Shown: positions 10,201-63,867, counted from the first letter of the stretch. The stretch: 64,000 nt of DNA from an uncultured Gammaproteobacteria bacterium (GCA_964590345.1 CAZPVP010000001.1:131954-195953); one strand, 5' to 3'. Translations and numbers: made by a program. Notes: generated by a model from the sequence alone, not told the origin.

Positions 10201-13200
10201 AGAATCATTTTCCTCTCCCTCCAAACCATTATACCAATCTAATTCAGCTGTGTCTTCAAAATTATCAAACATTTTTATATAAACATTATTGCCTTGATTG
10301 CCGACAAAAGCACGGCAGCCATTTGCTTCAGGACGGCAGGCAATGCCTTCATCTGGGATAGCGTCATAAAGGCAAGCTTCAATATCGCTCTGCCAGCGGC
10401 CATTAGTAGCTTCACAATTTTCTTCAGTTGCGTCAGTTTTTCTGTAAGGGTGGCAGTCTTCTGAAACCGAAACTGTTTTTCTAATATTGCGCCAATAATT
10501 GTTGCCATCATTGTCAAAAAAATTAATACACTTAAAATCTTGGCTGCCTAAAGTTACTCTACAATCGGCTGAACCATCAATTGTTTTTGGCGCACCAGTA
10601 TTCTCATCTTGCTGTAATTCATATTTAATCAATTGCGGCGGACCTGTTTCAGAGCCCTGCCAGGTGAAATAGGTCTTTTCTCCTAAGCCTAAATTAGGTT
10701 TAATGCATTGCCTTAAATAAGTATAATATCCAATGCCCTCGCCTCCTCTAGCCACTTCATCTAAATTAGTAAACTGCGAACAGCCAACTTCATCAAGCGT
10801 ACAAGCTGAAGCCGTATCTGGAATAAAATAATGATATAAAGGATCAGGTTCTGGATCATATAGCGCTGACTCTTGTTTATAAGTATCATAACCGACACAT
10901 TCAGCCGGACAATAATCATACGTGCTTACTACGCCAGGAATCGGAGGATCATTATTCAAAGGCGTAAAAAGCTGACAACCGACTTCTTCGGGTTGGCAAA
11001 CTTTCATATAATTTATACAGGCTGAATCATCAGGTGCATATTTATAACAAGCTGTTTTGTCAGCAAAGAATGCTGGTTTATCATCTTCTGGCTGATCCCA
11101 AAAATACCCATTGTCTTCACAAGCCTTTTTAGTTGTAAAATTTGCCATTACCGGCGGCGGATCACCCGGTCCATAGCCATGACAATTTAAAATTTCCGGC
11201 GGTTTCTTATAATAAATCTTATTATTTGATTCATAATCAGTATATCCGCTAATAAAATCTCTGTTTCTCACCTGATCAATTGTGTTTAGAGATAAATCAA
11301 GAGCATCTAAATAAACCTCTGCATCTGTTTCACCGCCTGGCAAATTAATTAAAATTTCAAGAGCTGTGCCTGGACGCGAAGTCATTAATGTGCTATTAAC
11401 TCGAGAATAGGCATTATTTAAGGAAAAACTGCCACTATTAAGCTCGTCAGGGAAAGTTTTTATCTTTTTTACTAAATTAAAAATAATTGGTTGATCCAGG
11501 GGCTGATTAGACTTTAAATAAGCTGTGGCTGTATAAGTGTCGCCTGCTCTTGTTAAATTCCCATCCTCATTAAATTTAAGGCTGTGAACGAGCTGCAATT
11601 CTTGATCAGCTGGAATTTGGCTAATATCCACTTGCAATTTACCTAAGCCACGATGTACATTGAAGCCATCTTTAGAAACAGAAGCTATGTCACTAAATGG
11701 CCCGTACCCCAGCCAATCGCCTAAAAGTTCTTGGCAATTCTCTTTGCTATAATCATAAATAAAAGCATCTTGACAACTCTTTAGCCAACTACCTCCATTT
11801 TGCACGCAAGTCTCTTCGCCTGCTTCAGTTAATTCGCTTGAAATCTGACCGTCAATCTGACATTCAGTCTGCCAAGTTCCATTATTATCTTCACAATCTG
11901 CTTGATTATCAAATTGCGGATTTCTGCAAAGGTTATATTTTAAAATACTTGTTAAACAATATTTTTTATATTCCGCATCTATGCCAAGTTTATCATTAGA
12001 ACAATCATCTTCTTTTACGTCATCATTTACCGCGCCTTCACAACGATAATCCCAAGTTCCCTCGCGAGCTAAACATTCTTCTTCTGTTACTGCATCTTCA
12101 ACACCGTCACAAAAACCCTGCCAAGTGCCATTATTAAAATTACACAATTCTCTTGTTTCATAACCATAATTTAAACAACTTTCATAATAAGTACCGTCAC
12201 ATTCATCTCTTTCTTCTACTTCTTTTTTAAGTCGCAAATCCCAATTAGCCGGGAAATAACCTTCTTTAGTGTATTCAAAGCTTGAATCAGCCACTAAATT
12301 ATTAGCCGAATCACGATATAAGAAAAATTCATTACAGCCTTCGTTTTCTTTTTGGCAGCTTTCAACATTATTGTTTAAATAAATCCTTTGATCATCCTGC
12401 CAAAGACCAGCTTTTGAACGATTAGTAGCATACCAACTGCAGCCTGCATTATGAGGCCCGCAGATTTCGCTGCCGCTTAGAGTATTTTTTAAATATGAAA
12501 TTAAACTAGTGCCTTCAGGCTCACTAATCGTATAAGTACGGCAGCTATTATATGCTTCAGGGCAAGAATCAGCGCCAAATTGCCAAGCATTTTTTTCTTT
12601 GACACAAAATCCATAATCTTCATTAACACAGCCTCCCTTGCCATCTTCCTCCAAGCAGGAAGAAAAATCAGGGCAGCGAGAGTACCTTTGGCCAGTTAAA
12701 TTAGACATTAAAATTTCACCGTAAGGCTCTAAATCAGTTTGCAAAGCGCATTTTGTTGTTGGAATTTTTAAAAGCCAATCAGGATCGACCAAATTACAAA
12801 AAGCTGACTCATCATCATCAAAATCACCGCAAGTTCCAGAACCAATTTTATCAAAACCATTAACGACATCAGCCAGAGTTGCTCCGACAACTTCATTTTT
12901 CTTTCTTATGTTATAATTTCTAATTTCTTCCAAACTGGCCCCAACGCCTGATGGCTTAAATAAACAATTTCTTAATCGTTCCGCAACAAAAGGTTTGGCA
13001 AGATCATTGTAGCCCGGTTGCTGTGCAGTTATATCTTCAAACTTGGCAAAATCAGGCTGGCCATCATTATCTTCATCATAAATATTTCTAAAATTACAGT
13101 CTCTAACTAATTCAATAGCCAATTCCAAACCCAAAGGCACAACACGAGCTTTTCTTAATTTTTTAATATTAGCCAAATGATAAGTGCCTGTTTCTACAGT

Positions 13201-15156
13201 CTCACCCCATGAAAAACCATAATCACCAACTAATTTCCTTTTTTCTAAAGCCTCACTTATTGTTAATTTATCATTAATTGCTAAAGCAAAATTTGAATCA
13301 ATAACATTATTATAAATATTTGGATTAACTTCCCCCTTAAGCTCTAATTGAAAATCAGACAATAAATTCACACTTTTATATGTAGCACTATAACTAAATT
13401 GCTGAGCCAACTTTTCAACATAACTTTGTATGCCTTCACTTGTCACTACTTCCTGGCTAAAAACATTAAAAGGCTGAACAGGATCCAAGGGTTCGCTTTC
13501 TGCTTCATCTGCGGCTTGTTTTTTTAACTTTGCGACTGAATACTCTTCTTGTTGCGATTCATTTAAGGCTGTTAATAACCTTTTTATCATGTGATTCCAA
13601 AGTGTGCCTGTAAAAACACCCAAAGCATCAGCTGCGATTTCTTTAGTATAAATTCTGGCATTATAAACCCCCTTGCTTGCTTTTAAATCTTCTTCTACTG
13701 AATCCCTAATAAGATTAGCAGGGGTTTGAATAGTATCAGTAATGCGATCCATGGCCCCTTTCCAGCCATCATTAATGGTTGCTTCAACGTGACGGTCAAT
13801 AAATTTATCAAGACCAACATCAACTATTTCTTTAGCTATATTTTCCCAAGCATTAAATTCATTGGCTTCAGGATTAAACATTCCCTTGCCTAATTGCCAA
13901 TTATATCTTTCACCGGCTTCAAAATTTTCAGGCGTTAATAATCTATCAAGACTGCTTTTTAAATAATCAAAGCTGCTTTTTATAGAATCAATAACACCTT
14001 CAATCAAGCCAATCTTGCGATTAACTTCATTTTCATAAATTTCAGCCAAATTTCTAGCGTCTTCTGGTATTGTGCCCAGGACCGGGCCTATGCCTAAACC
14101 CTGTAAAACCCTTGCGCAGTCGCCTTCACGCAATTCTATTGCGCTTTTGCCTTTACAGCCTGAATAAACAGATTTGGCTTCCTGTAAATTTTCCAGCCAA
14201 GGATCAATCCTGTTAAACCATTCTTCTTTAATTAAAGGGATATTTTCCGGTGCAATAACAAATTCACCAACTGATAATTCAACCGGTTCACTGCTTGCCA
14301 TTCCGCCTCTAATCGCTCTGCTATCATCTGATAATGTTTCTGTTAAATCATCCAGTTTTTCAGCATATACCTGCAAATTTTCTTGAACTGGCGGCATACT
14401 GCATTTGACTCGGCCTCCAGAAATAGACTCGCAATTTCCTGGTAACCAGTCCATCAACCGGTTATCCCATATCATAAGCTGCTCGTCATAAAGCGTAAAA
14501 TTTCGTAATCTTTCATTGCTCTCACTGACTGTCCCGCCTTCCTGAATTTGATAATTAAAAGAAAACCAATCTGACTCTGCCCATTCTTCCCAATGGCTAG
14601 TCAACTCTGAAAACGAACAATCAGGCGAATAGCCTTTAAAGCCTGGAAACATAGGCATATCCAAAGTTAAATCAATTGCTATTCTTGGATCAAGAGTGCA
14701 AATATCAATACCGGTTAAATCCTGCATCACGGTCTGAATCATATCACCAATTGCCGCATCAGCATAACCCTGAATAAATTGGTCAAAATTTGTAATAAAT
14801 TTAGGCGCACCGCCTTTATCTGAATGAGCCACCCATACAGCTGTCTGCTGGGCAATCGTATTTGCTAATCCGCCTAAAATATTTTTAAAAAACATTGCTT
14901 TTATTTCACTCAAAATTTTTGTGATTATCCTGTCAACTTTTTTTTCTGTTTCCTCTGCTGCTTGCTGACTCATATGAGCGCCTTTCATCACATTCTCGGC
15001 TGTCGAAAGAGGAACTAAATCTGGATTAGTTACAGGCGTTGCTTTTACCTCTTCAAGCTTAAAAAAGAAAACAGCATAAAAATTGCTAAAAACAAAAATC
15101 AGCGCAACAACTAAAATTATCAGCTTTTTAATTTTTATTTTTCTTGACTTAAGCAT
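7213..15156 (-). CDS. Giant secreted or membrane-anchored cysteine-rich protein (2647 aa), a putative surface/adhesin component of the T4SS-like locus.
   Basis: A single uninterrupted ORF with an N-terminal hydrophobic anchor (LIILVVALIFVFSNFYAVFFF). Paired cysteines recur along its length and there are many Asn-x-Ser/Thr sites. It is co-directional and immediately downstream of the VirB6-like gene (15-nt gap). Confidence 0.7.
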   Translation of the reverse strand: MLKSRKIKIKKLIILVVALIFVFSNFYAVFFFKLEEVKATPVTNPDLVPLSTAENVMKGAHMSQQAAEETEKKVDRIITKILSEIKAMFFKNILGGLANTIAQQTAVWVAHSDKGGAPKFITNFDQFIQGYADAAIGDMIQTVMQDLTGIDICTLDPRIAIDLTLDMPMFPGFKGYSPDCSFSELTSHWEEWAESDWFSFNYQIQEGGTVSESNERLRNFTLYDEQLMIWDNRLMDWLPGNCESISGGRVKCSMPPVQENLQVYAEKLDDLTETLSDDSRAIRGGMASSEPVELSVGEFVIAPENIPLIKEEWFNRIDPWLENLQEAKSVYSGCKGKSAIELREGDCARVLQGLGIGPVLGTIPEDARNLAEIYENEVNRKIGLIEGVIDSIKSSFDYLKSSLDRLLTPENFEAGERYNWQLGKGMFNPEANEFNAWENIAKEIVDVGLDKFIDRHVEATINDGWKGAMDRITDTIQTPANLIRDSVEEDLKASKGVYNARIYTKEIAADALGVFTGTLWNHMIKRLLTALNESQQEEYSVAKLKKQAADEAESEPLDPVQPFNVFSQEVVTSEGIQSYVEKLAQQFSYSATYKSVNLLSDFQLELKGEVNPNIYNNVIDSNFALAINDKLTISEALEKRKLVGDYGFSWGETVETGTYHLANIKKLRKARVVPLGLELAIELVRDCNFRNIYDEDNDGQPDFAKFEDITAQQPGYNDLAKPFVAERLRNCLFKPSGVGASLEEIRNYNIRKKNEVVGATLADVVNGFDKIGSGTCGDFDDDESAFCNLVDPDWLLKIPTTKCALQTDLEPYGEILMSNLTGQRYSRCPDFSSCLEEDGKGGCVNEDYGFCVKEKNAWQFGADSCPEAYNSCRTYTISEPEGTSLISYLKNTLSGSEICGPHNAGCSWYATNRSKAGLWQDDQRIYLNNNVESCQKENEGCNEFFLYRDSANNLVADSSFEYTKEGYFPANWDLRLKKEVEERDECDGTYYESCLNYGYETRELCNFNNGTWQGFCDGVEDAVTEEECLAREGTWDYRCEGAVNDDVKEDDCSNDKLGIDAEYKKYCLTSILKYNLCRNPQFDNQADCEDNNGTWQTECQIDGQISSELTEAGEETCVQNGGSWLKSCQDAFIYDYSKENCQELLGDWLGYGPFSDIASVSKDGFNVHRGLGKLQVDISQIPADQELQLVHSLKFNEDGNLTRAGDTYTATAYLKSNQPLDQPIIFNLVKKIKTFPDELNSGSFSLNNAYSRVNSTLMTSRPGTALEILINLPGGETDAEVYLDALDLSLNTIDQVRNRDFISGYTDYESNNKIYYKKPPEILNCHGYGPGDPPPVMANFTTKKACEDNGYFWDQPEDDKPAFFADKTACYKYAPDDSACINYMKVCQPEEVGCQLFTPLNNDPPIPGVVSTYDYCPAECVGYDTYKQESALYDPEPDPLYHYFIPDTASACTLDEVGCSQFTNLDEVARGGEGIGYYTYLRQCIKPNLGLGEKTYFTWQGSETGPPQLIKYELQQDENTGAPKTIDGSADCRVTLGSQDFKCINFFDNDGNNYWRNIRKTVSVSEDCHPYRKTDATEENCEATNGRWQSDIEACLYDAIPDEGIACRPEANGCRAFVGNQGNNVYIKMFDNFEDTAELDWYNGLEGEENDSLTRVGESIAVGGHSLLIPQQEVNSIHKFIDIQRGNLYTLSFWAKTDNPAGEVIAVRFSTAVDDGNATTMENFATLENQTVRLTTDWQNYTLGPVYVSWDDLQNNSLIFDSLDNKVYLDNILLKVVKDNVYAIKDSWSTPDSCDRTFYGVFKKGEMIGCQAYEDILGQTHYLRSFTNLCRESAVGCQILVDTKNSVNPHGQTFNNENASPLDDYSVAEDELTTLVLNDNYSCSDNDKGCQRLGKPNFEDVENITFQEVYLKNNPDKYVNVPDAILCNHDALGCTELINEEGVSEYYKIEPTKLCEYKQNLINGQKVEGWFKKGNPKLGCGGLLFDNIEDCQDNGGEWSEKYDQCTLILPEIKDEETCLLKRGEWLNSQCLAYPFSIYKVYEANKYKGYVGKCSEEWNGCTEFLDINPNFVFNGGFETRDPTGGLSNWVTVAASSGSQDKEIDDVQAGETAIKLIKETAQDCPSTPLYEECEAPPYGISQKLVRLEKGKAYKISFYYKMNEDSKGVGNDCPMPEAAFEFRPVDSERGAEPIIYTAETDWKKVEILYSVPLGECENSDYKSQKSCEEEDLTWNEFDDLLDFNLILYAPLNGNKSAEKNNCPDSYIIYDQVEVKDNTEDSYYVIDLGVNVDRSSCTEVDWNNGCVEFLNTANNNFETIKVSKDRNCEQWAVCTEKDENGFCQQVNLCAEREASECVRLLTEWQGGELVRAPKDNVRYSLQEEPMTIKRISDYNNKEGYIYRFGIGPLTQLTQWRAGDYSGYTIPNRFPLETELNDKEFEQYFHLNKLGRTADERYTEAICKIFPEQNAPLPYQLSEEQEYKDIPNLYSQSVDLKDIGTACSYEQVKAGGYTTYFPLGDSPAKICTMPEEAKGQVCSKASDCNPYYDPDNPEELANCKDIENRKAIFGLEGMCLEFDTSNPLYDGIYQDFYETTSDYQPYACLTYYPFLIDTCAYYKDETECENKIGCSWNGDVCKHEGNSSPEGGASSP

Positions 15157-21679: not shown

Positions 21680-22024
21680 TTATAAGGTTTTTATAAAACC
21701 AGAAAGCATTTTTGATATTTCAATTAACTTTTTATAAGCTTGCTCAAACTCTTGTCTTGAAATATATTTTAATTCTAATGCTAAATATAGCATAGACCGC
21801 ACTTCTGCGCATGATCCCTTAGCTATGTATAAAAATCTTGTAAATTCTTTATTGGTTCGTCTTTCAAAGCCTTCGACAATATTATTCATAACCGAAATTG
21901 CTGCTCTCTGTATTTGTCTTTTAAAATTATGATCCAAACATTTCTTAAACTGACTATAAATATCTAAGGTTAATTCCTTGCTTTTTTGCCAGGCAATTAT
22001 CTCCTCAAATTTTTCAATTTTCAT
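21680..22024 (-). CDS. Four-helix-bundle protein (TIGR02436-like, a family often encoded within 23S rRNA intervening sequences)
   Basis: 114 aa. IIAWQKSKELTLDIY...QIQRAAISVMNNIVEGFERRTNKEF..AKGSCAEVRSMLYLA matches the four-helix-bundle family signature. It is flanked by inverted AACTTTATAACTT-type repeats. Confidence 0.7.
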   Translation of the reverse strand: MKIEKFEEIIAWQKSKELTLDIYSQFKKCLDHNFKRQIQRAAISVMNNIVEGFERRTNKEFTRFLYIAKGSCAEVRSMLYLALELKYISRQEFEQAYKKLIEISKMLSGFIKTL

Positions 22025-23964: not shown

Positions 23965-24270
23965 TTAATTAAAATGATAAAGATAGCTATAAAAATTAGC
24001 TATTTTCCCCCTTTTTATGCTTATACCCTCATTTTGCAACAATTTAATTTTTTTTGCAAGTCCTAAGCAATAATTTCCTGCTTTTTTATCATTTCTGACT
24101 ACCCGATGACAAGGTATTTCAACCAATATAGGATTCTTATTCAAAGCATTTCCAACTGCCCGGGCAAGTTTTTTATTGCCCAACTTTAGCGCCAAAATAT
24201 GATAAGTTGTAATTTTCCCTTTGGGAATTTGTCTAACTAAATCCAGTACTTTTTGCTCAAAATCAGTCAT
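23965..24270 (-). CDS. Methylated-DNA-protein-cysteine methyltransferase DNA-binding/active-site domain only (101 aa)
   Basis: PCHRVV active-site motif (IPCHRVVRNDKKAGNY) and an upstream helix-turn-helix (IPKGKITTYHILALKLG). The N-terminal Ogt domain is absent. Confidence 0.7.
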   Translation of the reverse strand: MTDFEQKVLDLVRQIPKGKITTYHILALKLGNKKLARAVGNALNKNPILVEIPCHRVVRNDKKAGNYCLGLAKKIKLLQNEGISIKRGKIANFYSYLYHFN

Positions 24271-28464: not shown

Positions 28465-29658
28465 TTACATCATCTTTTTTCTAATAAAAGCTGGTATATC
28501 TAAATCTTCTTCTGACTTTTCTTCATCTTTTTTTGAGCTGGAAATTTTATAATCCTCTTTTTTCTCTTCTTTCTTTTTTGTTTCTTCTTCCTCTTGTTTC
28601 TCAGTTTTTTCTTTTTCGCTCTCTTCAACTAAAAATTGGCTGGGTTTATAAGAAGCAGCTTTTTCTGTAAATGTCTTATTATTTTCATTCTCTTTATTAC
28701 TTTTTATATTTTTATCAAAACCTGTTGCGATTACGGTTAACTTCGCCTCATCGCCCAAGTTTTTATCAATAATTGCTCCAAAAATAATTTTCGCATTCTC
28801 ATCAGCTGAAGCAGTAATTACTTTAGCTGCCTCATTAACTTCGTGCATGCTTAAATCAGGTCCGCCAGCAACAATAAATAAAACGCCTTTAGCGCCATCC
28901 ATAGAAAGCTCCAATAACGGACTGGAAATGGCTGATTTAGCTGCCTCAACCGCTCGACTATCACCATTTGCCTGTCCCATGCCCATTAAAGCCGTGCCTT
29001 GCTCTCTCATGATAGATTTAACATCAGCAAAATCAACATTGATCAAACCAGGTACAGTAACCAAATCTGAAATTCCTTGAATGGCATGTCTCAAAACATC
29101 ATCAACAATAGCAAAAGCTTCCAATAAAGAAGTCTTTTTATCAATTATTTGTAGTAATCTATCATTTTGAACAGTAATTAAAGTATCTACTTTGTCAGAC
29201 AATTGCTCCCAAGCTTTATCAGCGATTTCTTTTCTTTGCGCTCCCTCAAAAGAAAAAGGCTTTGTCACTACAGCGACAGTTAAAGCTCCTAATTCTCTGG
29301 CAATATCGGCAATAACAGGCATACTCCCACTACCAGTGCCGCCGCCCAAACCACAAGTAATAAAAACCATATCAGCATCTTTTAAGACTTCCCTGAGATC
29401 ATTTTGTGATTCTTCAGCAGCTTTAGCCCCTAATTCTGGATCCATGCCTGCGCCAAGACCTCGAGTAACTGTCTTGCCGATATGAAGCTTTTTATTAGCT
29501 TGCGAATAATGCAAATCCTGAACATCAGTATTAACGCTAATAAATTCTACCCCTCTTATTTGCGCATCTATCATTCTGTTTACAGCTGAACAACCGCCGC
29601 CGCCGACTCCCATTATTTTTATCTTGGCAAAAGTTTCTATTTCTGGTTTTATTTCCAT
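28465..29658 (-). CDS. ftsZ: Cell division GTPase FtsZ
   Basis: Tubulin signature GLGGGTGSGSMP, a T7 loop, and an acidic/K-rich C-terminal tail. 397 aa. Confidence 0.95.
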   Translation of the reverse strand: MEIKPEIETFAKIKIMGVGGGGCSAVNRMIDAQIRGVEFISVNTDVQDLHYSQANKKLHIGKTVTRGLGAGMDPELGAKAAEESQNDLREVLKDADMVFITCGLGGGTGSGSMPVIADIARELGALTVAVVTKPFSFEGAQRKEIADKAWEQLSDKVDTLITVQNDRLLQIIDKKTSLLEAFAIVDDVLRHAIQGISDLVTVPGLINVDFADVKSIMREQGTALMGMGQANGDSRAVEAAKSAISSPLLELSMDGAKGVLFIVAGGPDLSMHEVNEAAKVITASADENAKIIFGAIIDKNLGDEAKLTVIATGFDKNIKSNKENENNKTFTEKAASYKPSQFLVEESEKEKTEKQEEEETKKKEEKKEDYKISSSKKDEEKSEEDLDIPAFIRKKMM

Positions 29659-29684
29659 ATGGGTTAGTAAATTGGTTGATTAGC

Positions 29685-29704
29685 CCCAAGGGGGTCCCTT
29701 TGGG
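29685..29704. repeat. 20-bp near-perfect palindrome CCCAAGGGGGTCCCTTTGGG in the ftsA-ftsZ spacer. It is a second copy of the element inserted in the tRNA-Pro T-loop.
   Basis: Direct reading. It differs by one central base from the minus-strand insertion CCCAAGGGGATCCCTTTGGG in tRNA-Pro (63276..63297). It lies ~25 nt upstream of the ftsZ start codon. Confidence 0.7.
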
Positions 29705-29894
29705 ATAAATTAATTTATTAGGTAATGGTTAATCTAATTTTTTATATAAATTTTTCCTTTCCCTAATTTACCAATATACCGATTACCTAATAATCTTATT
29801 TTTATTGTACCATTTATTTAAAATTATGCAAGTCTTTTTTGCACAGCTTTGGACACATTTTTTGTTCATACAAATTTACAAAAAATAAAAGAAT

Positions 29895-31139
29895 TTACGG
29901 CATTAAAGATTTGAACCATTTTTTCATTTTGTTTGTTACGCCTGCTACGCTTTTAAAACGAGAGATGCCTTTACGCTGACCTTTTAATTGGTTTCCCCAT
30001 TTTACTAAGCCTATCGCAGTAGTAAAAGATAAATCATTCACTTTATCAATAACACTAACAATATCATAAGGATAGCCCAAAGAAGCTGGCAACCTTAATT
30101 TCTTCTTCGTTGCTTCAATTATCTTAGGCAATTTAGCGCCTGAACCTGTTAAAATCGCTCCGGCAGGTAAAGCTCCGCTTCTCTCTGTTTTTTTTAGTTC
30201 TTCATCAACTTTTTCCATAATCTCTTCTACGCGAGCTTCAATTATTTCAGCTAAATATTTTTTGCTAATCAAGCCTTCTTCATTTTCATCAAATTCTTTC
30301 AAATCAAATTCATCTTTTTTATCTAATCCTTTAGTCATGGCTATACCATGTTTTAATTTTATCTCTTCAGCTACATCAATAGACGTCCTTAAGCCAATGG
30401 CAATATCAGAAGTAATGTGTTCAGAGCCAATCGGTAAAATTACTGCACTTAACAAATCTCCTTGTTCAAAAACTGCTATACTGGTTGTTGCTCCGCCAAT
30501 ATTAATGACTACAACGCCTAATTCTTTTTGGCGTTTTGTTAAGACTGCCTCACTCGTAGCTAAAACTGATAAAACCAAATCTTCAATATCCAAACCTGTC
30601 TGATAAATGCATTTAGTCAGATTTTTAACCTGGGAGCTTAAACCTTCAATTATATATGTCTCAACTTCCAAACGTACACCGGTCATGCCGATGGGATCCT
30701 TAATATTGGTCTGGCCGTCAACAGTAAAGCTTTTAGGAATAACATGCAAAATTTCATAATTTGGCGGAGTTGTTACTGTCCTGGCTGCTTCAATAGCTCT
30801 TTCCACATCTTCCTCTCTAATTTCGCCGTCAGTTTTTGAAACAGCAACAACGCCCTTGCTGATTTGAGAAGTTATATGACCGCCAGAAATGCTTACCCAG
30901 GCTTGTTCAATGGGCAAACCAATCAATTTCTCTGTTTTATCCAGGGCCTTGCTTACGCTTTCTACTGCGTCTTCAATGCTCGTAATAACTCCTCTGTTAA
31001 TTCCTTCGGCTGCTTCTTCAATTGCGCCGATAATATGTAATTTTTGTTGTTTTTCCTCGCCAATGGTTCTTTGGCCGACTGCAATTTTAACCGATGTTGA
31101 ACCAATGTCAAGACCAACAATTATTTCTTCTTGCGACAT
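29895..31139 (-). CDS. ftsA: Cell division protein FtsA
   Basis: Actin-like ATPase with IVGLDIGSTSVKIAVGQ N-terminus, and it lies immediately upstream of ftsZ. 414 aa. Confidence 0.9.
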   Translation of the reverse strand: MSQEEIIVGLDIGSTSVKIAVGQRTIGEEKQQKLHIIGAIEEAAEGINRGVITSIEDAVESVSKALDKTEKLIGLPIEQAWVSISGGHITSQISKGVVAVSKTDGEIREEDVERAIEAARTVTTPPNYEILHVIPKSFTVDGQTNIKDPIGMTGVRLEVETYIIEGLSSQVKNLTKCIYQTGLDIEDLVLSVLATSEAVLTKRQKELGVVVINIGGATTSIAVFEQGDLLSAVILPIGSEHITSDIAIGLRTSIDVAEEIKLKHGIAMTKGLDKKDEFDLKEFDENEEGLISKKYLAEIIEARVEEIMEKVDEELKKTERSGALPAGAILTGSGAKLPKIIEATKKKLRLPASLGYPYDIVSVIDKVNDLSFTTAIGLVKWGNQLKGQRKGISRFKSVAGVTNKMKKWFKSLMP

Positions 31140-41255: not shown

Positions 41256-44200
41256 TTAAAATCTAATTGGTATTTCTATGCCATTCTTATATTGCCTTAA
41301 ATCATCAAAATTTGTATAACCGCCAAAATTATTATCATATATATATATTATACCAGCTACTGGCGTACATTGACACTCCTCGCCTGGCAAATCACCGCAA
41401 ATAGAGCCTTCTAAATCCTTACACGTGCCATAACCATTACAATCATTATCATCTGAACATTGCCTGCCAGTCATAAACTTTGCGGTATCAAATATTTCTT
41501 CTCTCATTGTAGTGCGATCTTCACCAGTCGCGCTATCAACAATTTGCCATTCTTTTTCAGGGTCATCTCTGATCGCCCAAACAACAGCATTAGCATTGTT
41601 TGAATCATCCACGCTATAACTATAACTAGCCTCTGGCCAAGGGTTATTACTGCCGCCAATTTTAAATCTAATTTCATTGCCTTCAATTAAAAAGGCCTGT
41701 GAATGCAAAACTCCAGTTGGCTTCGTATCTTGAATATCAGTAGTTTCTTCCCAGTAATTGCCCCTATATCTTTCATATGTGCCTATCCACCAATTGCCTT
41801 GAATTTGAGAAGAAATCCCGTCCCGTTGCGAAGTAATATCAGTATAAACTGGCTGAGAATCAAAAGCAGTGCCTGTTGCCTCAACCCAATTAAGCAAATT
41901 GCCATACTCAAAATCAGTATTCGTTAAATTACTCAAATTAGCTACATCTGGAAATAACCAACGGGCAGCCGGCAAATCACCAGCCGGGCCTGGCGGTCCG
42001 GCATCACGGCAATAATAAGTTTGGAAATTATAAGCATTGATTAGGCTGGAAATCGGGAATTTTTCTTGAATTGAAGGCCAAGGATTTTCGCAAAGCAAAA
42101 TATAAACATCAAAATTTTCCTGCGCAGGCGGCTCAAAGCTGCCTTTAGCCTGTGCTTCAATCGCTAACTGGGCAAAAGCCTCTTCTATTGGCTTTGCTGT
42201 GACAAAAGTTATGCCTGTATCATTTTGAACTTTATAATCATCTTCTGAACTGTCACCGCCGGTTAATTCTGGCTTATCATTATATATTTCTATTGCCCGT
42301 TGCGGATCTGTATCATCGGTTTTTGACCATTGATAATTAGCTTTTAAAGAAAAACCTTTTTTTGATTTGCCAATCGCATCGTATTCATGCTGATTGCCTT
42401 CTGTAGCAGGATCCTGGTCAAAATCTAAATCTAAGGCACAATCATCCCTGCCAGCACACATAAACAAATCATCATCTCTAAATTCAGCATTTCTATTATC
42501 CCAAATTGTGAAAGGCTTGCTATAAACAGAAACATCAATCCATTCAACATTGCAGATTCCGCTTTGAGGATCATCAGCTTCACCCAAAGTTTTGAAACCA
42601 AAAATATAATCTTCAGAATCAGCTAATGGATCTGGCCAGGGCGAATTGCTGTTATCTAATTGGCCGCCGGCTAAACTTTTTATACCTATTTCACCGCCTA
42701 TAATAGTTACCTGATAATATTGTTCAGAGTCTAAAAAATTATCAGTAAACAAAGAAACTATTGTTTTATCATAAGCATTTAAAGTTTCCAATTCATATTC
42801 TTCACTGCTAAATTCAGTGCATTCTTGAGCCAAGGCTTGCCTGTCATAACCGACCAATCTCTTGAAAATATTTTTAAAATATTGGACTGTTTTATAAACC
42901 AAACCTTTATTTTGCTGCCGGGCAAAAGTTGAATCGCTGCAAGAAGCAATCCTGATATGATTTTCCAAAGTGCTTTCATCAATTAAATCATCAAAATAAA
43001 TATCAACAATACCATTAGTGCAAAATTCCTCTTCGCCATGATTCGGCATTGTAGCCTGAACTTTAAATTGCGGCAGCTCTAATAAACTACAAGCAGAAGT
43101 ATCAAATTCACATTGTTCATTATGGCCAGGCGGATAACAACTTAATTCCCCTGGCTCAAGCTCCAAAGTTTCGCAAGTTTGATTATTTAATCCAACAACT
43201 GTACATTGCCACTCTTCACCGCAATCACAATCTTCCATATAATTTAATTCCGGATAATTACTGATTATATTGTTGCCGCATAAATCTAAAATCGAGCGGC
43301 AATCATTGCCAATGCAAAACATTAAATTGCAATCATCTGCGCAGTCAGCATAACATTGATCTATTTCTTCATCAGGTCTTTCAGAAAACAATTTTTGACA
43401 AATTTCTTCTAATTCGGAATCTTCTATTTCCGGCATTGTGCCGTCATCACACATTTCACCTAAACCACGGTCAATGATTTTGTCACCGCAAGCGCCAAAA
43501 CTAACATCAAAACGCAAAGCACTGCTTAAAATATCCTGGCCATTAATATCTTTAGAAACCTGTACTTGATTCCTGCCTGTACCAAAAGTCGTACCATAAC
43601 CAGCAGCATCTTCTGGCACCTTAAAACAAATATTTTCATTTGCCCATCCGTCATCAGCCGGACAAGCATTAAATTCTTGCTCATTAATATAATCAGTTAT
43701 TTTAAAGCTATAATCATCAGCTGATAAATCAGTATCATACAAGCCATTTTCATTAACATCAATAAAAAGTTCGCCAATCCCTTCCTTTTCATCATAATCA
43801 TATTGATTATTGCCTTCTGTTCCGTCCGGGTTTGAACTGCTGTCAAAATCATCTGAAGCAGGATCAGGATTTATTTCCGGATCATAGCCGTCTTCTTGCT
43901 CGCTTGGTAAGCCGTCAAGGCCGTAATCATACCAGGGCTCCCGTAATTCTGACAGTTCTGAATTTGGCCCAAATTTTATATAATCATTTGCTTGCAAATC
44001 AGCGAAATTCTCACCAATGGCTCTAACTGTTATGCCTTGATTGCCCAAATCAGGTGTTAAACGGCAAAGATTAGGAACTGAGACATCATCCACATCATAA
44101 TTAGCCGGATCCAAATGTTCAGTCGTATCTTCATATGGCGCGCCAAAAGCTGTAATTAACTTAATCGGCCCGTCAATTGCATCATTTAAATCATACCCTT

Positions 44201-47200
44201 CTGGCGGACAATCGCCTTCAGGGCAGTCCATATTTGGCTCAATATCCTGATTCGGCACTTCAACAATAACCTCGTCATAATCATCAGGATTACAGCGCCA
44301 GGTCTCACCGCAGTCTGGATTTTTTTCGCCCACATTTAAAGCTTCCTTAATATAACCAGTTGCTTGTTTGCCTGCCAAAACTTGTATTTCAACATCAGTC
44401 AATGCCCGGTCATAAATCCGCAATTCATCTATCTGGCCATAAAACCATGACTCCGGGGATTTTACTCCATCAGGCTTGCGTGCTTCTGAACCTACGCCAA
44501 TAAAACCAAAGCTTTGTGATCTTTCTTGGCCTGCGCCCAAACTTTTATCACCAGGGGTAGTTACTGCAGCTACTTGTTCGCCATCTACATAAATTCTTTT
44601 ATTGGGTGATGCATTAGTATTAAACCAGCCGCAAATATAATGCCAGTTTCCATCAGCATAATCGCTTTCTGTTGACAAATCACGTGTTTGATCTAAACTA
44701 TCTGTTGTATCCCAGCCAACATTTGCAGCTCCTGTAGGAACGGTGTCTTTCAAGGCCAATCGCCAAACTTCGCTCCTGTCAAAAGAAGCTATTATTTGAG
44801 CTTGTTGGCTGGAAGATTTCACCCGGGCGCAAACCGTAGTTTCTGGAAGCTCACTCTGGCCATAACTTATTGGCAAGGCAACATAATCGCCAGTGCCGTT
44901 TAAATTTAAAATACCTTGATCAATAGAAGCATCACCTTTTAATTCCCCGTGATATTCATTAGCTGAAGCATCGTTAGCTGTGTCATCATCAAATGAATAA
45001 TAAGCCTTATAATCCTGCAAGGAAGTCAAGTCTTCCATTTGTTCAGCTGTCTTGCCCCAGAAATAAACCTGGCCCGGATCACAGCCAAAATAACAGCCAT
45101 TCAATGCCACCCAAGTGCCGACAGCACCGCTATTTGGCGTAAATTCCATAATATATGGAGTACAACGGCCATTAATGCAACTGCTTGTGCCTTCACCGCA
45201 GGCATTACAATCCAAGTCAGTTTTGCACTGGTCTGCTGCGCCAGTTAAAGGGCAGGCTACATATTTAGAAATTCTATTTTTTTCTGCATCACGAACAAGC
45301 GATAATTCACCAGTCCAAAAGACTCTGTTTTCCCAGTCATAACCGCCGATTGCTTCATTTTCTTCGTTTGGTGAAAGATTGTTTTTGGACCAAGAAGTAA
45401 CATATTCTTCTGAATGCCAGTTAAGGGCGACCACGCCTATTGATGAATTATTATAATAATTAGAAATATAAATAATATTTTCATCAACTGCAATGCCCAA
45501 TGGGCCGGCTACGCCATTTGGCAAATCATCAACAGTAAAGCTTTTTACCAAGCGCCAATTATTTTTAGGATCATAAATTTTAACTTTATAGGTTTTTCCC
45601 CACCAAAATTTAATCTGTGCAACATTAAAGACATACTGGCCATTTGAATCAATTAATCCGCCATTTATCAGTGAGCCATTGCTTATATTGCGAGCTGCAT
45701 TAATTATCCCGCCCACAAAATTCAAAAACGGTGATGGCAATGAGGCTGATTGCTGTAAATAAAATTCATTAGTTTCATCATCAAAAATTATTTCCGGCAC
45801 CCACCAATTACCGCCTTCGGCATAAGTAAGCCCCGGATAAAATTTGCCGTCAGAATGATAAGTTATTGAAGGCAAATATATTACTTGCTCGCTGCTGTCA
45901 GGCTGGATCCTGTCACGCCAGACATATTCATTATATATCCTGCCCAATTCAGTGCCATTATAACCAGTGCCAATTTTATAAATAATATTACGGGGGTTAA
46001 CGCCAGAAATATTTGAATCATAAGATAGCCGCCAATTCCACCAAGTCGTATCTGTTCTGGCATATAAATATGTTCCGTCACTGGTTGAATTATAAGTATT
46101 AACATAAGATGCGATCTTGCCTGCCTGATCATGGGGCCTTATCGGGAACCCCGACAAGACTGCTTCTTTACGGCCGATTTTCCCGCTGCCAGTAACTTCA
46201 CAACCGCCAAAAACAGTAAAATTAACTGGATTACTAGGCACATCTTCATAAACAATGTCGTATTGGCCGCTTGGGCACCATGTACCGATACTAAAGCCAG
46301 CGCAAGCCCGGCCTGTTTCAATTCTTTTAGTCACTACCACTTCGCCGGTTTCAGCTCCGGCCGGCACATTGCCTGTAATAGTCTTATTATCCCAATAAGA
46401 AGTTGTGGCTATCGCCCTATCCGTAAAAATCAAATTGCTGTTTCCTTTTTCAACTTCAAACCTGTCGCCCTGAACAACAACTACTTCATCCGGCTCGCCA
46501 AATGTCGGCGTTATCTGACAAATTCCAGCGCCCAGCGGATCATCATTAACTTCATAATTGACTCGATTGCTTTCCAAGCCAGTCCCAGTTATTAAATAAA
46601 GATCGCCTGGCTCAGCGCCTTCTGGCACTTCCACAATGATTTGGGTATTAGTCCAATAATTATCACAAGGCGGCGGCGGAAACAAGGCTTCTTTATCATT
46701 ATAAAAGAAAACCTTACTTTCCCCTTTCACATACTCGCCAAAATTATAACCAGAAATAGTCACCCAAGTGCCGATTGGCCCGTTATCAGGTGAAATTTTC
46801 TCTATTACCGGCGGCAAATAAAAAGGCAAGGTATTGCTTTCAAGAGAATCTACTTGTTCAGTATTTTGTTCAGTATTGCCGGTTTCAAAATTTTCTACTG
46901 AATAAGTGCCTGAATCATATTCAAAATTGGAATTTATATCAGCATACTCGTCGCAGCCTTCGGTCTGGCCTTCTGCACAGGGAGTAAAAAAACCATCACC
47001 TGTTAAATCATTATATGGCTCTGAATAAGGATCAATGGATATTGAAACGTCTATTTCTGGATAACCAATATCACTAAACGGATTAATTGCTTCCACCAAT
47101 TTGTTGGTCCAGCCCCTAATATTCTCGTCTCCCAAAAAATCAGCGTCAAAAATAGTATAACTGCCTACGCCATATTCTTTGCCCTCATAAGTCGTTTTAT

Positions 47201-50200
47201 TGGAATCGCCGAAATTATCGCCATCCAAAGCAACTTCTGTCCCTTCCAAACCAAAATCAGGCTGCAAATCGCATAAGAAAGGATAAACATTTTCACTATA
47301 AATAAAAGTCCGATCACTTTTAGCTTTACCAAAAAGTGTTTGGACATAAACATATGAACCGTCTTTAGCGCCCAAGCGGCTCTGGATTTCTCCCTCGCTT
47401 AATGCCCGGTTATAAACAACTATTTCATCCAAAGCACCGGTAAATTCATTATCACAGCCGCCTAAGCATGAATCGCCATAAATATCCTGTTTATAATATC
47501 TGCCTGGTTCATCATATTCAGCTTGCTGGCCATTAAGGTAAATTTTCACTTTTTCACCGTCATAAACTCCGGCAAAATAATTCCATTGGTCAATATTTAT
47601 GCCATTTGAAGTTTCGGCATAAACAGATGAACCAGTTTTTTCTCCCTCATCAGCCACAAAAACACTAAAGAGCAAACTATCATCAACTATTCTCACTGAC
47701 AAATTATCGCCTTGCTCAAAGATCACATTGTCTTGAGTATCACTAACTTTAAACCAGCCCTCAATAGTTATGCCTTTATAAAAACGCAAAGCCGGATTAT
47801 CAGCAATGTTTATATGATTATCATTATTAAAACTAATTGCTTTGCCATAGCGCCCTTCGTCAATTCTAAAGCTCTTGCTTGGATCAGCAATTGAAACTCC
47901 CTGAAAATTATTAACTGATGAATCAATAATTTGTTCTCCTGTACCTTCAAAATTAAGCAATAAAGTTTGACCTGATTGCAAGCCATAATTATTACGGACT
48001 TCTCCTGCGCCTAAAACACGATCATAAATAGCAAATCCGTCCATTGTTCCTTTAAAATAATCTTTAATACCTTGGCTGTTTTTTGCACCAATTAAAACAT
48101 CAGTTTTGTTAATAACATCAGCTAAAAATCCTTGCTGACTTAAATTATTATTAGCTAAATTCCCTTCACTGGCTAAATATTGCAATTTAACGCCATTAAT
48201 ATAAATATTGTATTTTTCACCGTCAAAAGTATAGACAAGATGATTCCAGTTATTCCATTTGACTGGCGCGCCAATTGTTTTATTAAATTGACCATTAATA
48301 ACCAAATTCAAATCAGTGCCATTTTCAGTGCCACTTTCCAAATCTAACGAAAATAAATCATCTGAACCGTCAGAAGCGCTAAACAAAGTTTGTTGGCCTG
48401 CTTGCTCCGGCTTAAACCATAATTCAAGACTGCCCGTTTCCAAATCTAAAGTATTTGGCAATTTAACATAATCACTAACTCCATTAAACAACATAGCCTG
48501 GCCAAACTGATCACTAACTCTTTGAGGTGAGCCCATTATTTCGCCTTCATAATTGCCCAACTGATCTTCTAAAATAACTCCGCCAGTATCTTCAAAACTA
48601 TAAAATAAAATCATACCATTTCTATCCACTAATTCCGGCAAATTATAAGTGGCTTGTTGTTCTGCCTCCACTGGTTTGGCTTTGGGCGCTAAGACCTGAA
48701 TTATTTCATCTGTCCAAGGATCACCGCAGTCAACCAATTCAGCCGGCACTTCTTCAAAGGTAACCCCACCAGCCAAAGGCTCATCACCAAAATTCTTGCC
48801 GTAAATTGTCACATAAGCATTAATATCAGGATGAATCAGGCCATTGTTAGGGTAAATTCTATCAATTTCCGGCAGATTCAAATCAATTACCAATTCATTG
48901 TCTTCATCCTTTTCATTATCCGGTGAATCAGGAAAAACTTCAGCGCCAATATAAGTTAATCCCTGATCAATCGGTGTCGCTATTTGTTTATAATCAATCT
49001 TATTATTGCCCTCGCTTATTATATTGCCGGATTCATCACGAATACGCGGCCGAATATCTTGCTCTGATATAGTGGCAATGCCATAATCTTCCAATGTTTC
49101 TGAAGCTTCTTCTCTGGTACCATCACTATAAACTTTATACCACGTCCAGTCATAAGCATTACCATTCAAAATATTGCAATTTTCAGCCAAGGCAAAGGCA
49201 TTATATTCCTGATCTTCAGTAATTAATTCTATTAATGCTTCTTGGGGATTAACCACGACGTTATCAATTTCACAAGCTTCAGCTGAATTTCTGATTCTAA
49301 AATGCCAAGAATAATCTCCGCCTTCAATGCCGTCAAAATCACCATCCAGCCAATAATTACCCAGCTCTAACGCCGATTTAATGCCATCACGACCACTTTT
49401 TAAGGTCACTTTATACCAAGTATTAGGCTTTAAATAATTATCCGGATGTTCTGTCCTTGGCTCAAAAACAAAGCCAGTATCTTCATTAATTGTATCTATT
49501 GCTAAAGGTTCAAGCGGCCTTGGCGAACAAAGATTTTCCTCAAAAGCACCATCATCATTACATTTCTGAACAATAATAGTATTTTTATTTAAAGAAGCTA
49601 CATCCATCTTTTGGGTAAAACGGGCTGAAATCCAAATATTGGCACAATTATCAACTGAATTTTTCCAAGGTGTCGGGCTTTGTGTGTTCTCTTCACAAGG
49701 CAGCTCTTCAATAACTTGGGGTGGTTCTACGTCAATATCTAAACCTGTTGTAAAAGACCATTTATAAGTGCACATTGGCGCCACTTCCATTTCGCAGTCT
49801 TCTGGCAAACGGCAAACGCCATCTAATTCACAGCAAATTAAGCCCGTATTTTCTGTATCACAAATACTTGGATCATCACGGCAATCAATTACTTCAAATT
49901 GCATTTGATTGCTTACCAAACCATTTTGATCAATTAATTCAACTGGACCTGTTACTGCTCCTTCAGGAACAGTCATTGGCAATCCGCTCCTTACTTGGCC
50001 AGAACCAACTTGATTTTCAGTCCAATAATTTGATAAATCATCAGCAACTTCTTTGTCATCCCAAAAAAATACTTTGCTTTGCTCTGAATCATAATCATAA
50101 CTATCAAAATTTTCGCCGTAAAGCGTAATATCAGTAGTGCCAATTGGACCCTGATCAGGCTCAAGCAAACAAATGCCTGGCCTCAAAGGGCAAGTCTCGG

Positions 50201-62683: not shown

Positions 62684-63235
62684 TTGCTATTCGCCAAATC
62701 TATGAAACTTGTCGTCGGATTAGGTAATCCCGGAAAACAATACCAAAATACTCGCCACAATATTGGTTTTGCTGCTCTGGATTTTATCAGAGAGTCTTTT
62801 GATTTGCCAAAATTTAAACTAGATAAAAAATTAAAAGCTGAAATTTCCAAAAACAAAGAAATTATTCTGGCCAAGCCGCGAACCTTTATGAACAATTCAG
62901 GTGAGGCTGTTAGCTTATTGAAAAAATATTATAAAATTAAAATTTCCGATATCATTGTTTTGCGCGATGACGTTGATATTCCTATCGGAAAAATTAAAAC
63001 AAAAAAAGGCTCAAACGGCGCAGGCCATAAAGGCATTCAATCAATTATAAAGCATTTAAAATCAAATGATTTCTGGCAAATAAAAATTGGCGTTGCCAAT
63101 GAAATGATCAGAAAAAAAATCCCGACAGAAAAATTTGTTTTACAAAAGTTTATAAAAGAAGACTTGGAAAAAGCCAAAGAGCTACCCAAAAAAACAATAA
63201 AAGAAATTCAATCAATTATAAATAAAAAAACCTAG
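62684..63235 (+). CDS. pth: Peptidyl-tRNA hydrolase
   Basis: LVVGLGNPGKQYQNTRHNIGF N-terminal signature. 183 aa. Confidence 0.9.
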   Translation: MLFAKSMKLVVGLGNPGKQYQNTRHNIGFAALDFIRESFDLPKFKLDKKLKAEISKNKEIILAKPRTFMNNSGEAVSLLKKYYKIKISDIIVLRDDVDIPIGKIKTKKGSNGAGHKGIQSIIKHLKSNDFWQIKIGVANEMIRKKIPTEKFVLQKFIKEDLEKAKELPKKTIKEIQSIINKKT

Positions 63236-63253
63236 TCATACGACTAGATTTTT
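63224..63253. terminator. Bidirectional rho-independent terminator candidate (serving pth on the plus strand and tRNA-Pro on the minus strand)
   Basis: aaaaaaaC CTAGTC atac GACTAG atttttg. It is a 6-bp stem with a 4-nt loop. The plus strand has an A-run upstream and a T-run downstream, so both strands read stem plus T-run. Confidence 0.45.
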
Positions 63254-63257
63254 GAAA

Positions 63258-63353
<96 letters not shown>

Positions 63354-63362
63354 ATTTTGAAA

Positions 63363-63530
63363 TTAGCGGCAAAAAATTGCCAAATAAAGTTTGTAAGGGA
63401 CAAGGAAATAATACTTTCCCCATTTAAAGGGATCGTAAATTTCATAACCTGTTAAGGCTCTAGCCATACAGGCTAAACCAATAATAATCACTCCTCCCCA
63501 AAACCAGGCGCTAATTATTGCTATCAGCAA
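63363..63530 (-). CDS. Hypothetical 55-aa hydrophobic small protein (TTG start), hand-called
   Basis: AAGGAGG lies 6 nt upstream of the TTG. Translation: (M)LIAIISAWFWGGVIIIGLACMARALTGYEIYDPFKWGKYYFLVPYKLYLAIFCR. It has one predicted TM helix. It lies between the structured upstream region and tRNA-Pro. It is not in the ORF track because it is shorter than 60 aa with a non-ATG start. Confidence 0.3.
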   Translation of the reverse strand: MLIAIISAWFWGGVIIIGLACMARALTGYEIYDPFKWGKYYFLVPYKLYLAIFCR

Positions 63531-63867
63531 AGTACACCTCCTTATTAATTTAATATCCAGAGTACTACCTACCAGCGTAGAGTTCTTAGCACTAGGCTAA
63601 TGGCCCTAACTTGTGGCAAATCAGGAGAAGGAGGGACCTCCCTCATTGCCGGCTGGCAAGGTAGAAATCTGGATACTAATATTTTAACATTATAGCACAA
63701 TAGCTGACCTTTGTCAAACACGTTTTTCACATCTGATTGGTTTGAATATCCGCTAACTTTCCTGAATATCTCTTTTTGCCTTGTTTCATCTTGATTTATA
63801 TACCCGATTTCTCCTAATCTCATTCTTTATTTCTCTTCTTTCTCCAATATGCTAATATTATTAAAGT

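Follow-up and report, generated by a model that had tools for sequence, protein, structure and literature searches.

What is a short, GC-rich palindrome doing at two unrelated places in a stretch of DNA with 35% GC, and why does one of its copies lie inside a gene for a structural RNA? The stretch in question, hereafter the window, comprises 64,000 nucleotides (GCA_964590345.1 CAZPVP010000001.1:131954-195953) filed under an uncultured Gammaproteobacteria bacterium; copy A of the palindrome is found in the spacer between ftsA and ftsZ, and copy B within the T-loop of a gene for tRNA-Pro(UGG). We consider it probable, if well short of certain, that both are copies of one 22-nt, GC-rich, non-autonomous palindromic insertion element. 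The wider family to which they belong shows exact insertion of 22 nt without target duplication, low copy number, self-nesting and a strong enrichment in tRNA genes. As a miniature palindromic insertion with a tRNA-loop habit and an association with GIY-YIG genes, it is, as far as can be told, previously undescribed: the palindrome sequence had no match in the literature searched, and searches on T-loop insertions, tRNA introns of Patescibacteria and GIY-YIG proteins with tRNA yielded analogues only.

Copy A has as its core the 20-mer CCCAAGGGGGTCCCTTTGGG (29685-29704 on the plus strand), and copy B, whose core occupies 63277-63296, reads CCCAAGGGGATCCCTTTGGG on the minus strand; once one of them is reverse-complemented the two agree at 19 of 20 positions, the single difference being a central base. 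In the sense of their own transcripts, relative to which they are oppositely oriented, copy A reads T-CCCAAAGGG-AC-CCCCTTGGG-G and copy B T-CCCAAGGGG-AT-CCCTTTGGG-A. The sequence-only reading that drew attention to the pair had marked the whole spacer (29659-29894) for copy A, and had described copy B as a near-identical sequence inside the tRNA-Pro T-loop, differing at one central base; the alignment and a match to Rfam RF00005 bear this out. The palindrome centre that it noted, GGATCC or GGNTCC, is present as GGATCC and GGGTCC. The same reading had called the hairpin perfect, which it is not, each pair of arms having one imperfect place (arm position 6), which reads as a G.T pair or an A.C pair depending on the strand. 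A lone CCCAAAGGG at 24217 was rejected as a further copy, being merely the codons for I-P-K-G-K.

Chance resemblance, a chimeric assembly, or a binding or restriction-modification site with no history of insertion would each dispense with a mobile element, and can point to there being only two copies in the window and to the GGATCC/GGGTCC core. Dinucleotide-preserving shuffles, however, give 0.01 matches expected against the 2 sites observed, and 0 of 100 shuffles reached 2. Insertion into tRNA-Val in three independent assemblies (L016, L126 and L130) makes an assembly artefact unlikely as an explanation for the class, and clean filled/empty pairs of sites exist, as described below. The 22-mer is far longer than the targets of restriction-modification systems, and no restriction or DNA-methylase gene is found among the window open reading frames (ORFs) scanned, the only methyltransferase being the rRNA enzyme KsgA; here and below, this scope refers to Pfam searches of 20 further window ORFs which, with conserved gene order, cover about 30 of the 39 that are 110 aa or longer, about 10 ORFs, including the four longest, lying outside the Pfam scan. 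We find this whole group of explanations scarcely credible.

A scan of one genome per species with CCCAARGGGNNCCCYTTGGG returned at least 119 loci in 596 Gb, where by our own estimate about 35 chance matches would be expected at uniform base composition; the clustering of matches within genomes, and their contexts, argue that the family is not a product of chance. Its hosts include Patescibacteria, Bacteroidota, Desantisbacteria, Ignavibacteria, Nitrospirota and others, and some genomes hold 5-10 or more loci (at least 10 in Desantisbacteria MNUP01, 8 in Chitinophagaceae CAYHZL01). Copy number is low, with 2 per 64 kb in the window and none in some 84 kb from close relatives. In a viral collection there were family matches at 2 loci only, which is uninformative; one IMG/VR viral contig (L142, 14.4 kb, with 39 tRNA genes) has a hairpin akin to the family, CCCGAAGGGACCCCTTCGGG, at a distance of 230 nt from tRNA-Gly. 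The unit itself is a 22-mer of the form T/C-CCCRRRGGG-NN-CCCYYYGGG-A/G with arms of 9-10 bp, and can be resolved into two complementary 11-nt mini-hairpins (TCCC-AAA-GGGA and TCCC-TTT-GGGA, for example), in each of which two 4-nt stems enclose a 3-nt loop of purines or pyrimidines. Its commonest variants are CCCAAAGGGATCCCTTTGGG, the one-mismatch form that also occurs in the window tRNA, and a form with an AC/GT centre. The flanking bases that widen the unit to 22 nt are T..A (56 of 138 copies), C..A or T..G.

The insertional character of these sequences is most evident at 22 filled/empty pairs, each with a paralogous empty site at the same locus, where the difference is a clean 22 nt with no duplication of the target; no common motif was found at the 22 empty sites. 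Copies are also inserted into one another (L001, L100, L056 and L065, and within a tRNA T-loop in L150), and inserts of like units, such as AGCCAAAGGCT+CCCCTTCGGGG, occur in L127, L057 and L129. A perfect stem of at least 7 bp surrounds 5.3% of sites as against 0.9% of random sites, so that stem-loop apexes are favoured and not obligatory, and an initial notion that the element always sits at a stem apex is only partly true. Neither a miniature inverted-repeat transposable element, given the lack of target-site duplication in these pairs and a whole unit of merely 22 nt, nor a CRISPR array, given copies in L050 and L089 that lie about 1 kb apart with conserved long flanks, describes the family.

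The sequence-only reading had proposed a miniature mobile or REP-like (repetitive extragenic palindromic) element. That one element lies at two unrelated loci as a miniature inserted palindrome is upheld by its absence from the ftsA-ftsZ spacer of four relatives, the 22-nt filled/empty pairs and the self-nesting; the strict REP label is not. REP sequences and the REPINs built from them, which occur with REP-associated tyrosine transposases (RAYTs) in Enterobacteria and Pseudomonas, have a 5' GTAG-type motif and hundreds of copies and are extragenic, mostly after genes (PMC3116915). With a 22-nt unit, 9-10-bp arms and one mismatch, the present family falls within the 20-40-nt imperfect palindromes by which REPs are defined, and resembles REPs and REPINs in being GC-rich, dispersed, non-autonomous and presumably mobilised in trans by a hairpin-recognising nuclease. 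A RAYT (a Y1 HUH enzyme) or an IS200/IS605-type enzyme acting on single-stranded hairpins could be the mover, the GIY-YIG neighbours described below being coincidental. The multiple copies in MNUP01 and CAYHZL01 would accord with this, as would entry into loops or other single-strand-like targets without duplication, which is how HUH transposition proceeds. Yet the 22-mer has no conserved GTAG-like guide tetranucleotide and no common motif at its empty sites, its copy number is far under that of typical REPs, it lies in tRNA genes and 5' untranslated regions (UTRs), and its neighbour is of the GIY-YIG and not the HUH type; no transposase family emerged from unbiased clustering of hairpin neighbours (ORFs within 1.2 kb) or from the window ORFs scanned, and no RAYT gene in particular appeared among either those ORFs or the recurrent neighbours. 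A REP-type origin seems to us improbable.

At the ftsA-ftsZ locus, copy A lies in the ftsZ 5' UTR, 26 nt from the ATG. A promoter-like motif upstream, inferred from conservation and not listed by a strict consensus scan, places the hairpin within the ftsZ leader transcript. The spacer was aligned with those of three relatives whose FtsZ is 76-77% identical. Homologous spacers in four relatives (L138/L139, L140 and L141, that of L139 being identical to that of L138) have the promoter-like motif and no hairpin, and measure 105-135 nt against 236 nt in the window. The roughly 120 extra nucleotides of the window leader, 3' of the promoter motif, consist of an AT-rich inverted repeat followed by the GC hairpin; the former is single-copy in the window, missing from the relatives, and could represent either a further insertion or some structure of the leader. 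In CAZDHZ01, a more distant metagenome-assembled genome whose FtsZ is 60% identical, copies precede ftsZ by 14 nt, clpB by 22 nt and, in the secD-secF spacer, secF by 19 nt, all three in one orientation and with common extended flanks, TAAA-hairpin-GKWAAC. Upstream of clpB in that genome (L039, 1-135) the hairpin is preceded by a promoter-like TTGACA-17-TATTAT and a CIRCE-like operator, TTAGCAGTC-N9-GAGTGCTAA. An intrinsic terminator was considered for copy A and rejected: in the sense direction the hairpin is followed by CTAATCAACC, with no U-run, and there is only a weak antisense half-site. Lying downstream of the conserved promoter, copy A would give the ftsZ 5' UTR an additional stable stem-loop, with an effect on the mRNA that is probably neutral or mildly stabilising.

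Copy B presents the more severe case. In the RF00005 alignment, 27 nt occupy the T-loop against 5 model positions. ARAGORN is blind to the gene as it stands, but with about 22 nt taken out it reports tRNA-Pro(tgg). The T-arm reads GCAGG-TT[TCCCAAGGGGATCCCTTTGGGA]CAAAT-CCTGC, so that, given a standard TTCAAAT T-loop, the insert falls exactly between U55 and C56. The predicted fold is a complete cloverleaf with copy B as a separate 9-bp helix off the T-loop (minimum free energy -50.5 kcal/mol, z -3.8), the T-arm consisting of the T-stem, a 2x5 internal loop and the 9-bp helix, with both junctions opposite each other. U55 and C56 make universally conserved contacts of the tRNA elbow. By converting the 7-nt T-loop into an internal loop and helix at the U55/C56 turn, copy B should destroy the elbow between D-loop and T-loop, and would thereby probably disable this tRNA-Pro copy unless the hairpin leaves the RNA. 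With G1-C72 and U2.G71 the gene departs from the nine other tRNA-Pro genes of the loci, every one of which has C1-G72; it has G37 and encodes no CCA. The missing CCA was dropped as a sign of a dead gene, since some hairpin-free tRNAs of relatives also lack it and the hairpin-bearing copy in L150 has it. The slot after pth holds tRNA-Pro with the hairpin in the window, tRNA-Cys in L137, tRNA-Ala, -Cys and -Thr in L134, and no tRNA but two ORFs in L131; this slot (63236-63540) appears to be a place where tRNA genes turn over especially often.

Transfer RNA genes are a recurrent target of the family at large. TRNA-like flanks occur in 24 of 153 copies among the matches listed, and a metagenome scan for the hairpin in T-loop context gave 11 loci, all 11 within tRNA T-arms; D-, anticodon and T-loops are all represented. 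The complete tRNA-Val(UAC) genes of the three assemblies named above have the insert at 55/56, and the orthologous slot is empty in L144, L145 and L147. Most tRNA-associated copies lie in displaced, duplicated fragments next to an intact tRNA. In one arrangement a hairpin-bearing 3' part lies 40-400 nt downstream of the intact copy (L120, Gly; L121, Ser; L122/L123, Pro-GGG; L125, Pro-CGG; L129, Ile; L082, Gly), and in the other a 5' part, with the hairpin in its D-loop or anticodon arm, lies upstream (L071, L033, L118 and L057). L127 has a nearly full second tRNA-Lys copy bearing four such inserts, and L118 and L082 contain arrays of hairpin-bearing fragments. Deletion of 20-24-mers at all loci allowed ARAGORN to recover only the window tRNA; the fragments and multiply interrupted copies were recognised by manual and BLAST analysis. 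As a separate observation, an intact tRNA (Ser-UGA in L121, 601-800; Pro-CGG in L125, 1005-1413) is nested between the halves of an older copy that has a split anticodon loop and T-loop hairpin inserts, L125 displaying three 'generations' of tRNA-Pro(CGG).

Many of these loci contain, in the interval from displaced fragment to intact tRNA, a small ORF of 80-100 aa that encodes a GIY-YIG catalytic domain only (PF01541, E 1e-12 to 1e-16). A hidden Markov model built from nine such ORFs found 16 in 1.06 Mb of loci, 13 of them at most 620 nt and 10 at most 160 nt from a hairpin, and in the unbiased clustering of neighbouring ORFs the GIY-YIG family ranked first, with 11 loci as against 6 for the next. 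An adjacent GIY-YIG ORF together with a duplicated target is seen in L033, L057, L071, L118, L123, L127 and L129, and is absent from the window. The passing suggestion of the sequence-only reading that the palindrome is the site of a specific nuclease may be nearer the truth than was intended, small GIY-YIG nucleases being the commonest neighbours elsewhere, with none in the window by the family model. Clusters of tRNA genes interleaved with one or two small GIY-YIG ORFs were also noted in L123 (1690-2453), L129 (197-1336) and L021 (3760-4570), the last with a tandem array of a 30-nt repeat, gccgaggtttactcggcgtaatgtatggaaaa, from the 5' end of tRNA-Phe.

Could the palindrome be a by-product or immunity device of GIY-YIG homing, which blocks re-cleavage of a displaced target copy or breaks up direct repeats that would otherwise delete the cassette, with solo copies as leftovers? 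In so-called collaborative homing, an ORF-less intron homes together with a neighbouring endonuclease. SegB of phage T4, for its part, is a free-standing GIY-YIG homing endonuclease in a tRNA region (PMC13096335). The family resembles both, with a small GIY-YIG gene among tRNA genes and an insert that interrupts its target beside a free-standing nuclease gene. Those systems, by contrast, are phage-borne, with full-length enzymes and self-splicing introns, whereas here there are 80-100-aa domains, a 22-nt palindrome and a tRNA restored by partial duplication. The presence of hairpins in displaced fragments, with none in the intact tRNA alongside, and their distance of 11-27 nt from the repeat end nearest the ORF would suit such a device, as would the fragment arrays of L118 and L082; so would a complete tRNA with a T-loop hairpin, as recombination between an intact tRNA and a 3' fragment could produce one. 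But the ftsZ, clpB and secF leader copies have neither tRNA nor GIY-YIG context, the source of an identical 22-mer across phyla goes unexplained, and the intact tRNA of L118 has the same sequence as the fragments and would stay cleavable. We regard this explanation as very improbable.

In the insertion reading that we prefer, the element would spread by copying of DNA, its targets being single-stranded DNA or extruded stem-loops of the kind that heavily transcribed tRNA genes, open AT-rich leaders and the element's own apex may offer. Copying would depend on a nuclease supplied in trans, for which a Slx1/YhbQ-like GIY-YIG protein is the best candidate. As the window has no GIY-YIG gene, its two copies would be relics or solo products, or would rely on a gene located elsewhere in that genome. 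A complete tRNA with a T-loop hairpin, such as that of copy B, could arise if an intact tRNA recombined, upstream of the hairpin, with a downstream hairpin-bearing 3' fragment, an event that would delete the cassette and keep the hairpin; no hairpin-free tRNA-Pro copy or duplicated tRNA fragment is present within the window.

Several observations weigh against this reading. About 90% of family copies have no tRNA or GIY-YIG gene nearby, so that the link with either may be indirect. Hairpin and GIY-YIG ORF are always 11-27 nt or more apart, with target-derived sequence between them, which means that the hairpin does not just form a cassette end. Nor does the window supply a mobilising gene, there being no transposase or GIY-YIG gene among the ORFs scanned. 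The remaining points favour an element that acts at the RNA level, as a processing or stabilising stem-loop about 20 nt before start codons, and in tRNAs as a 22-nt mini-intron, or one that is tolerated; in its mini-intron form the hairpin would be cut at its base by a protein endonuclease and the ends religated (by RtcB, for example), tRNA-Pro and tRNA-Val being working genes. The interrupted tRNA-Pro keeps a flawless predicted cloverleaf in which the hairpin is a separate helix, along with its own promoter-like site (a weak one, 63383-63354, just 5' of the gene) and a terminator, and there is no hairpin-free tRNA copy near it or near that of L126; the other complete carrier, tRNA-Val, has an equally flawless cloverleaf. 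Read in the tRNA sense, both complete tRNAs that bear the hairpin have G.U at the imperfect place in the arms. The spacing of 14, 19, 22 and 26 nt before four start codons (ftsZ twice, clpB and secF), with the three CAZDHZ01 copies alike in orientation and flanks, hints at function over random insertion. The orthologous hairpin-bearing tRNA-Val genes of two species, L126 and L150, differ at 14 of 72 positions, with four pairs changed on both sides and yet still paired and one broken; these double changes would point to selection on RNA structure if the insert predates the species split, and are uninformative if the T-loop was hit independently in each lineage.

On the other side of the balance, most tRNA-associated copies sit in evidently dead fragments beside an intact copy, A.C mismatches occur in the tRNA sense in 4 of 11 T-loop copies, and the ftsZ copy is A.C in the mRNA sense. 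Conservation of the tRNA slot is lacking among relatives. The tRNA-Val of L150 has a nested second insert and the anticodon AAC, which by their sequence are signs of decay, and a hairpin-free tRNA-Val(UAC)-like gene stands 50 nt downstream. Insertion at U55/C56 strikes the conserved contacts of established tRNA structure, and there is no bulge-helix-bulge or ribozyme motif. The RNA-level explanation as a whole appears to us unlikely; that the complete hairpin-bearing tRNAs are functional is doubtful to a similar degree. A little more doubtful again is its fullest form, in which the T-loop hairpin is a new bacterial tRNA intervening sequence, tRNA-Pro(UGG) and the tRNA-Val(UAC) of the sister species are working genes whose hairpin is either cut out by protein and the RNA religated or kept as an enlarged T-arm, and the leader hairpins are processing sites for the same enzyme.

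Known introns offer partial likenesses only. Fujishima et al. 2010 are said to have described transposed short tRNA introns of Thermoproteales, which the family resembles in placing related inserts of about 12-25 nt at many non-canonical tRNA positions (D-loop, T-loop and stems). Archaeal tRNA introns are recognised through a bulge-helix-bulge cut by EndA (PMC3241643). Copy B differs in that no such motif can be drawn, in its bacterial host, and in that many carriers of the family are dead fragments; an archaeal-type intron was rejected, there being no 3-nt bulges with a 4-bp helix at the splice sites but a fold of 2x5 internal loop and 9-bp helix. No EndA splicing endonuclease or ligase turned up among the window ORFs scanned, in 64 kb of genome. 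Group I introns in tRNAs of Patescibacteria lie in the anticodon loop, and T-arm or hairpin inserts are not mentioned in PMC13011429. A group I intron was likewise rejected for copy B, a 22-nt insert in the T-loop of a window with no RF00028 match. Separately, one family copy (L114, 6406-6425) lies within a group I intron (6261-6577, RF00028, 80 bits), apparently as a peripheral hairpin. To our knowledge, position 55/56 has never been seen for a bacterial intron.

Among the smallest mobile sequences, the closest counterparts are the SDR1-8 families of Nostocaceae, 21-27 nt long, which Elhai et al. 2008 (Genome Res 18:1484) reportedly presented as perhaps the smallest mobile element. The 22-mer shares with them its size class, its hairpin and its self-nesting (L001, L100 and L150). 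SDRs insert into specific short motifs; as described, they occur only within a single group of cyanobacteria and differ in sequence, and there is no report of them from tRNA loops or beside GIY-YIG genes (PMC5861425 cites the SDR work of Elhai et al. 2008). With hosts in Patescibacteria, Bacteroidota and others, the present family is at best an analogue of them. Yeast mitochondrial GC clusters and the palindromic elements of Rickettsia are 30-150 nt long, and GC clusters duplicate a short target. They too are GC-rich palindromes of AT-rich, streamlined genomes that enter structural RNA and protein genes, where they are tolerated or bypassed; we know of neither in tRNA T-loops.

Coordinates of the two copies and of the features around them are collected in Table 1.

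Table 1. The palindrome copies and adjoining features of the window, in window coordinates.
Feature	Position	Strand	Basis
ftsZ, 397 aa, downstream of copy A	28465..29658	-	Pfam PF00091/PF12327 homologues
Copy A, probable 22-nt palindromic insertion	29684..29705	-	Sequence and chance expectation; absent from homologous spacers of relatives
Imperfect inverted repeat, AT-rich, adjoining copy A; arms of 25 nt with 80% complementarity, separated by 45 nt	29707..29801		Inverted-repeat search and spacer alignment
Promoter-like TTGCAT-16 nt-TACAAT	29804..29831	-	Conserved in all four aligned ftsA-ftsZ spacers
ftsA, 414 aa, upstream of spacer	29895..31139	-	Synteny with FtsA-annotated genes in L138-L141
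Terminator-like hairpin and T-run right after the tRNA 3' end, common to convergent pth	63226..63253	-	
tRNA-Pro(UGG), 96 nt, split by copy B	63258..63353	-	Rfam RF00005, 51.7 bits
Copy B, probable 22-nt insertion between U55 and C56 of the T-loop	63276..63297	-	Deletion restores tRNA-Pro(tgg) in ARAGORN

Nearly all genes of the window are on the minus strand. The best named relatives of its FtsZ and Pth belong to Candidatus Buchananbacteria, Parcubacteria and the Patescibacteria group, and the gene orders hisS-lepB-lytR-der-dagK-pth and ybeY-dgkA-ftsA-ftsZ-nrdR-nrdD are kept in several metagenome-assembled genomes and metagenome contigs; judged by its sequence, the window is from a small candidate-phyla (Patescibacteria) genome. 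Two relatives, GCA_964400885.1 (loci L016, L134 and L138) and CAZDHZ01 (L093, L039 and L109), are labelled 'uncultured Gammaproteobacteria' at NCBI and share with this Patescibacteria window 60-80% protein identity and gene order. Their labels look wrong, and for GCA_964400885 gene content shows the label to be in error. Between the tRNA and dprA lies a candidate structured RNA of about 140 nt (63543-63694, minus strand), with a perfect TTGACA-17-TGnTATAAT promoter at 63717-63689; its conservation in five relatives (L131, L134-L137) is 76-81%, compensatory changes affect 6 of the 42 pairs that RNAalifold assigns to it, and Rfam offers no match at E<=1. At 21680-22024 (minus strand) the window has a free-standing gene for a '23S rRNA intervening sequence protein' (PF05635, E 6e-35), and a similar gene lies about 900 nt from a hairpin in L022. 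HisRS (56721-58172, minus strand) has an N-terminal extension of about 60 aa, rich in lysine and alanine. Two giant minus-strand ORFs encode 2647 aa (7213-15156) and 3771 aa (41256-52571), the latter being the counterpart of giant T4SS_pilin/Big_5 proteins that relatives encode upstream of hisS.

If the family is as it appears, its 22-nt unit would be among the smallest insertion elements known, and one of unusual habit, entering tRNA loops and accompanying GIY-YIG cassettes that rebuild the tRNA by partial duplication. It would provide a mechanism for the turnover of tRNA genes in the streamlined genomes of candidate phyla, explain tRNA genes there that standard finders miss, as ARAGORN missed that of the window, and offer a concrete substrate for the abundant, uncharacterised GIY-YIG proteins of 80-100 aa. 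If the interrupted tRNAs were instead functional, they would represent a new bacterial route of tRNA processing, and were the hairpin a true intervening sequence, it would imply protein-dependent tRNA splicing in bacteria.

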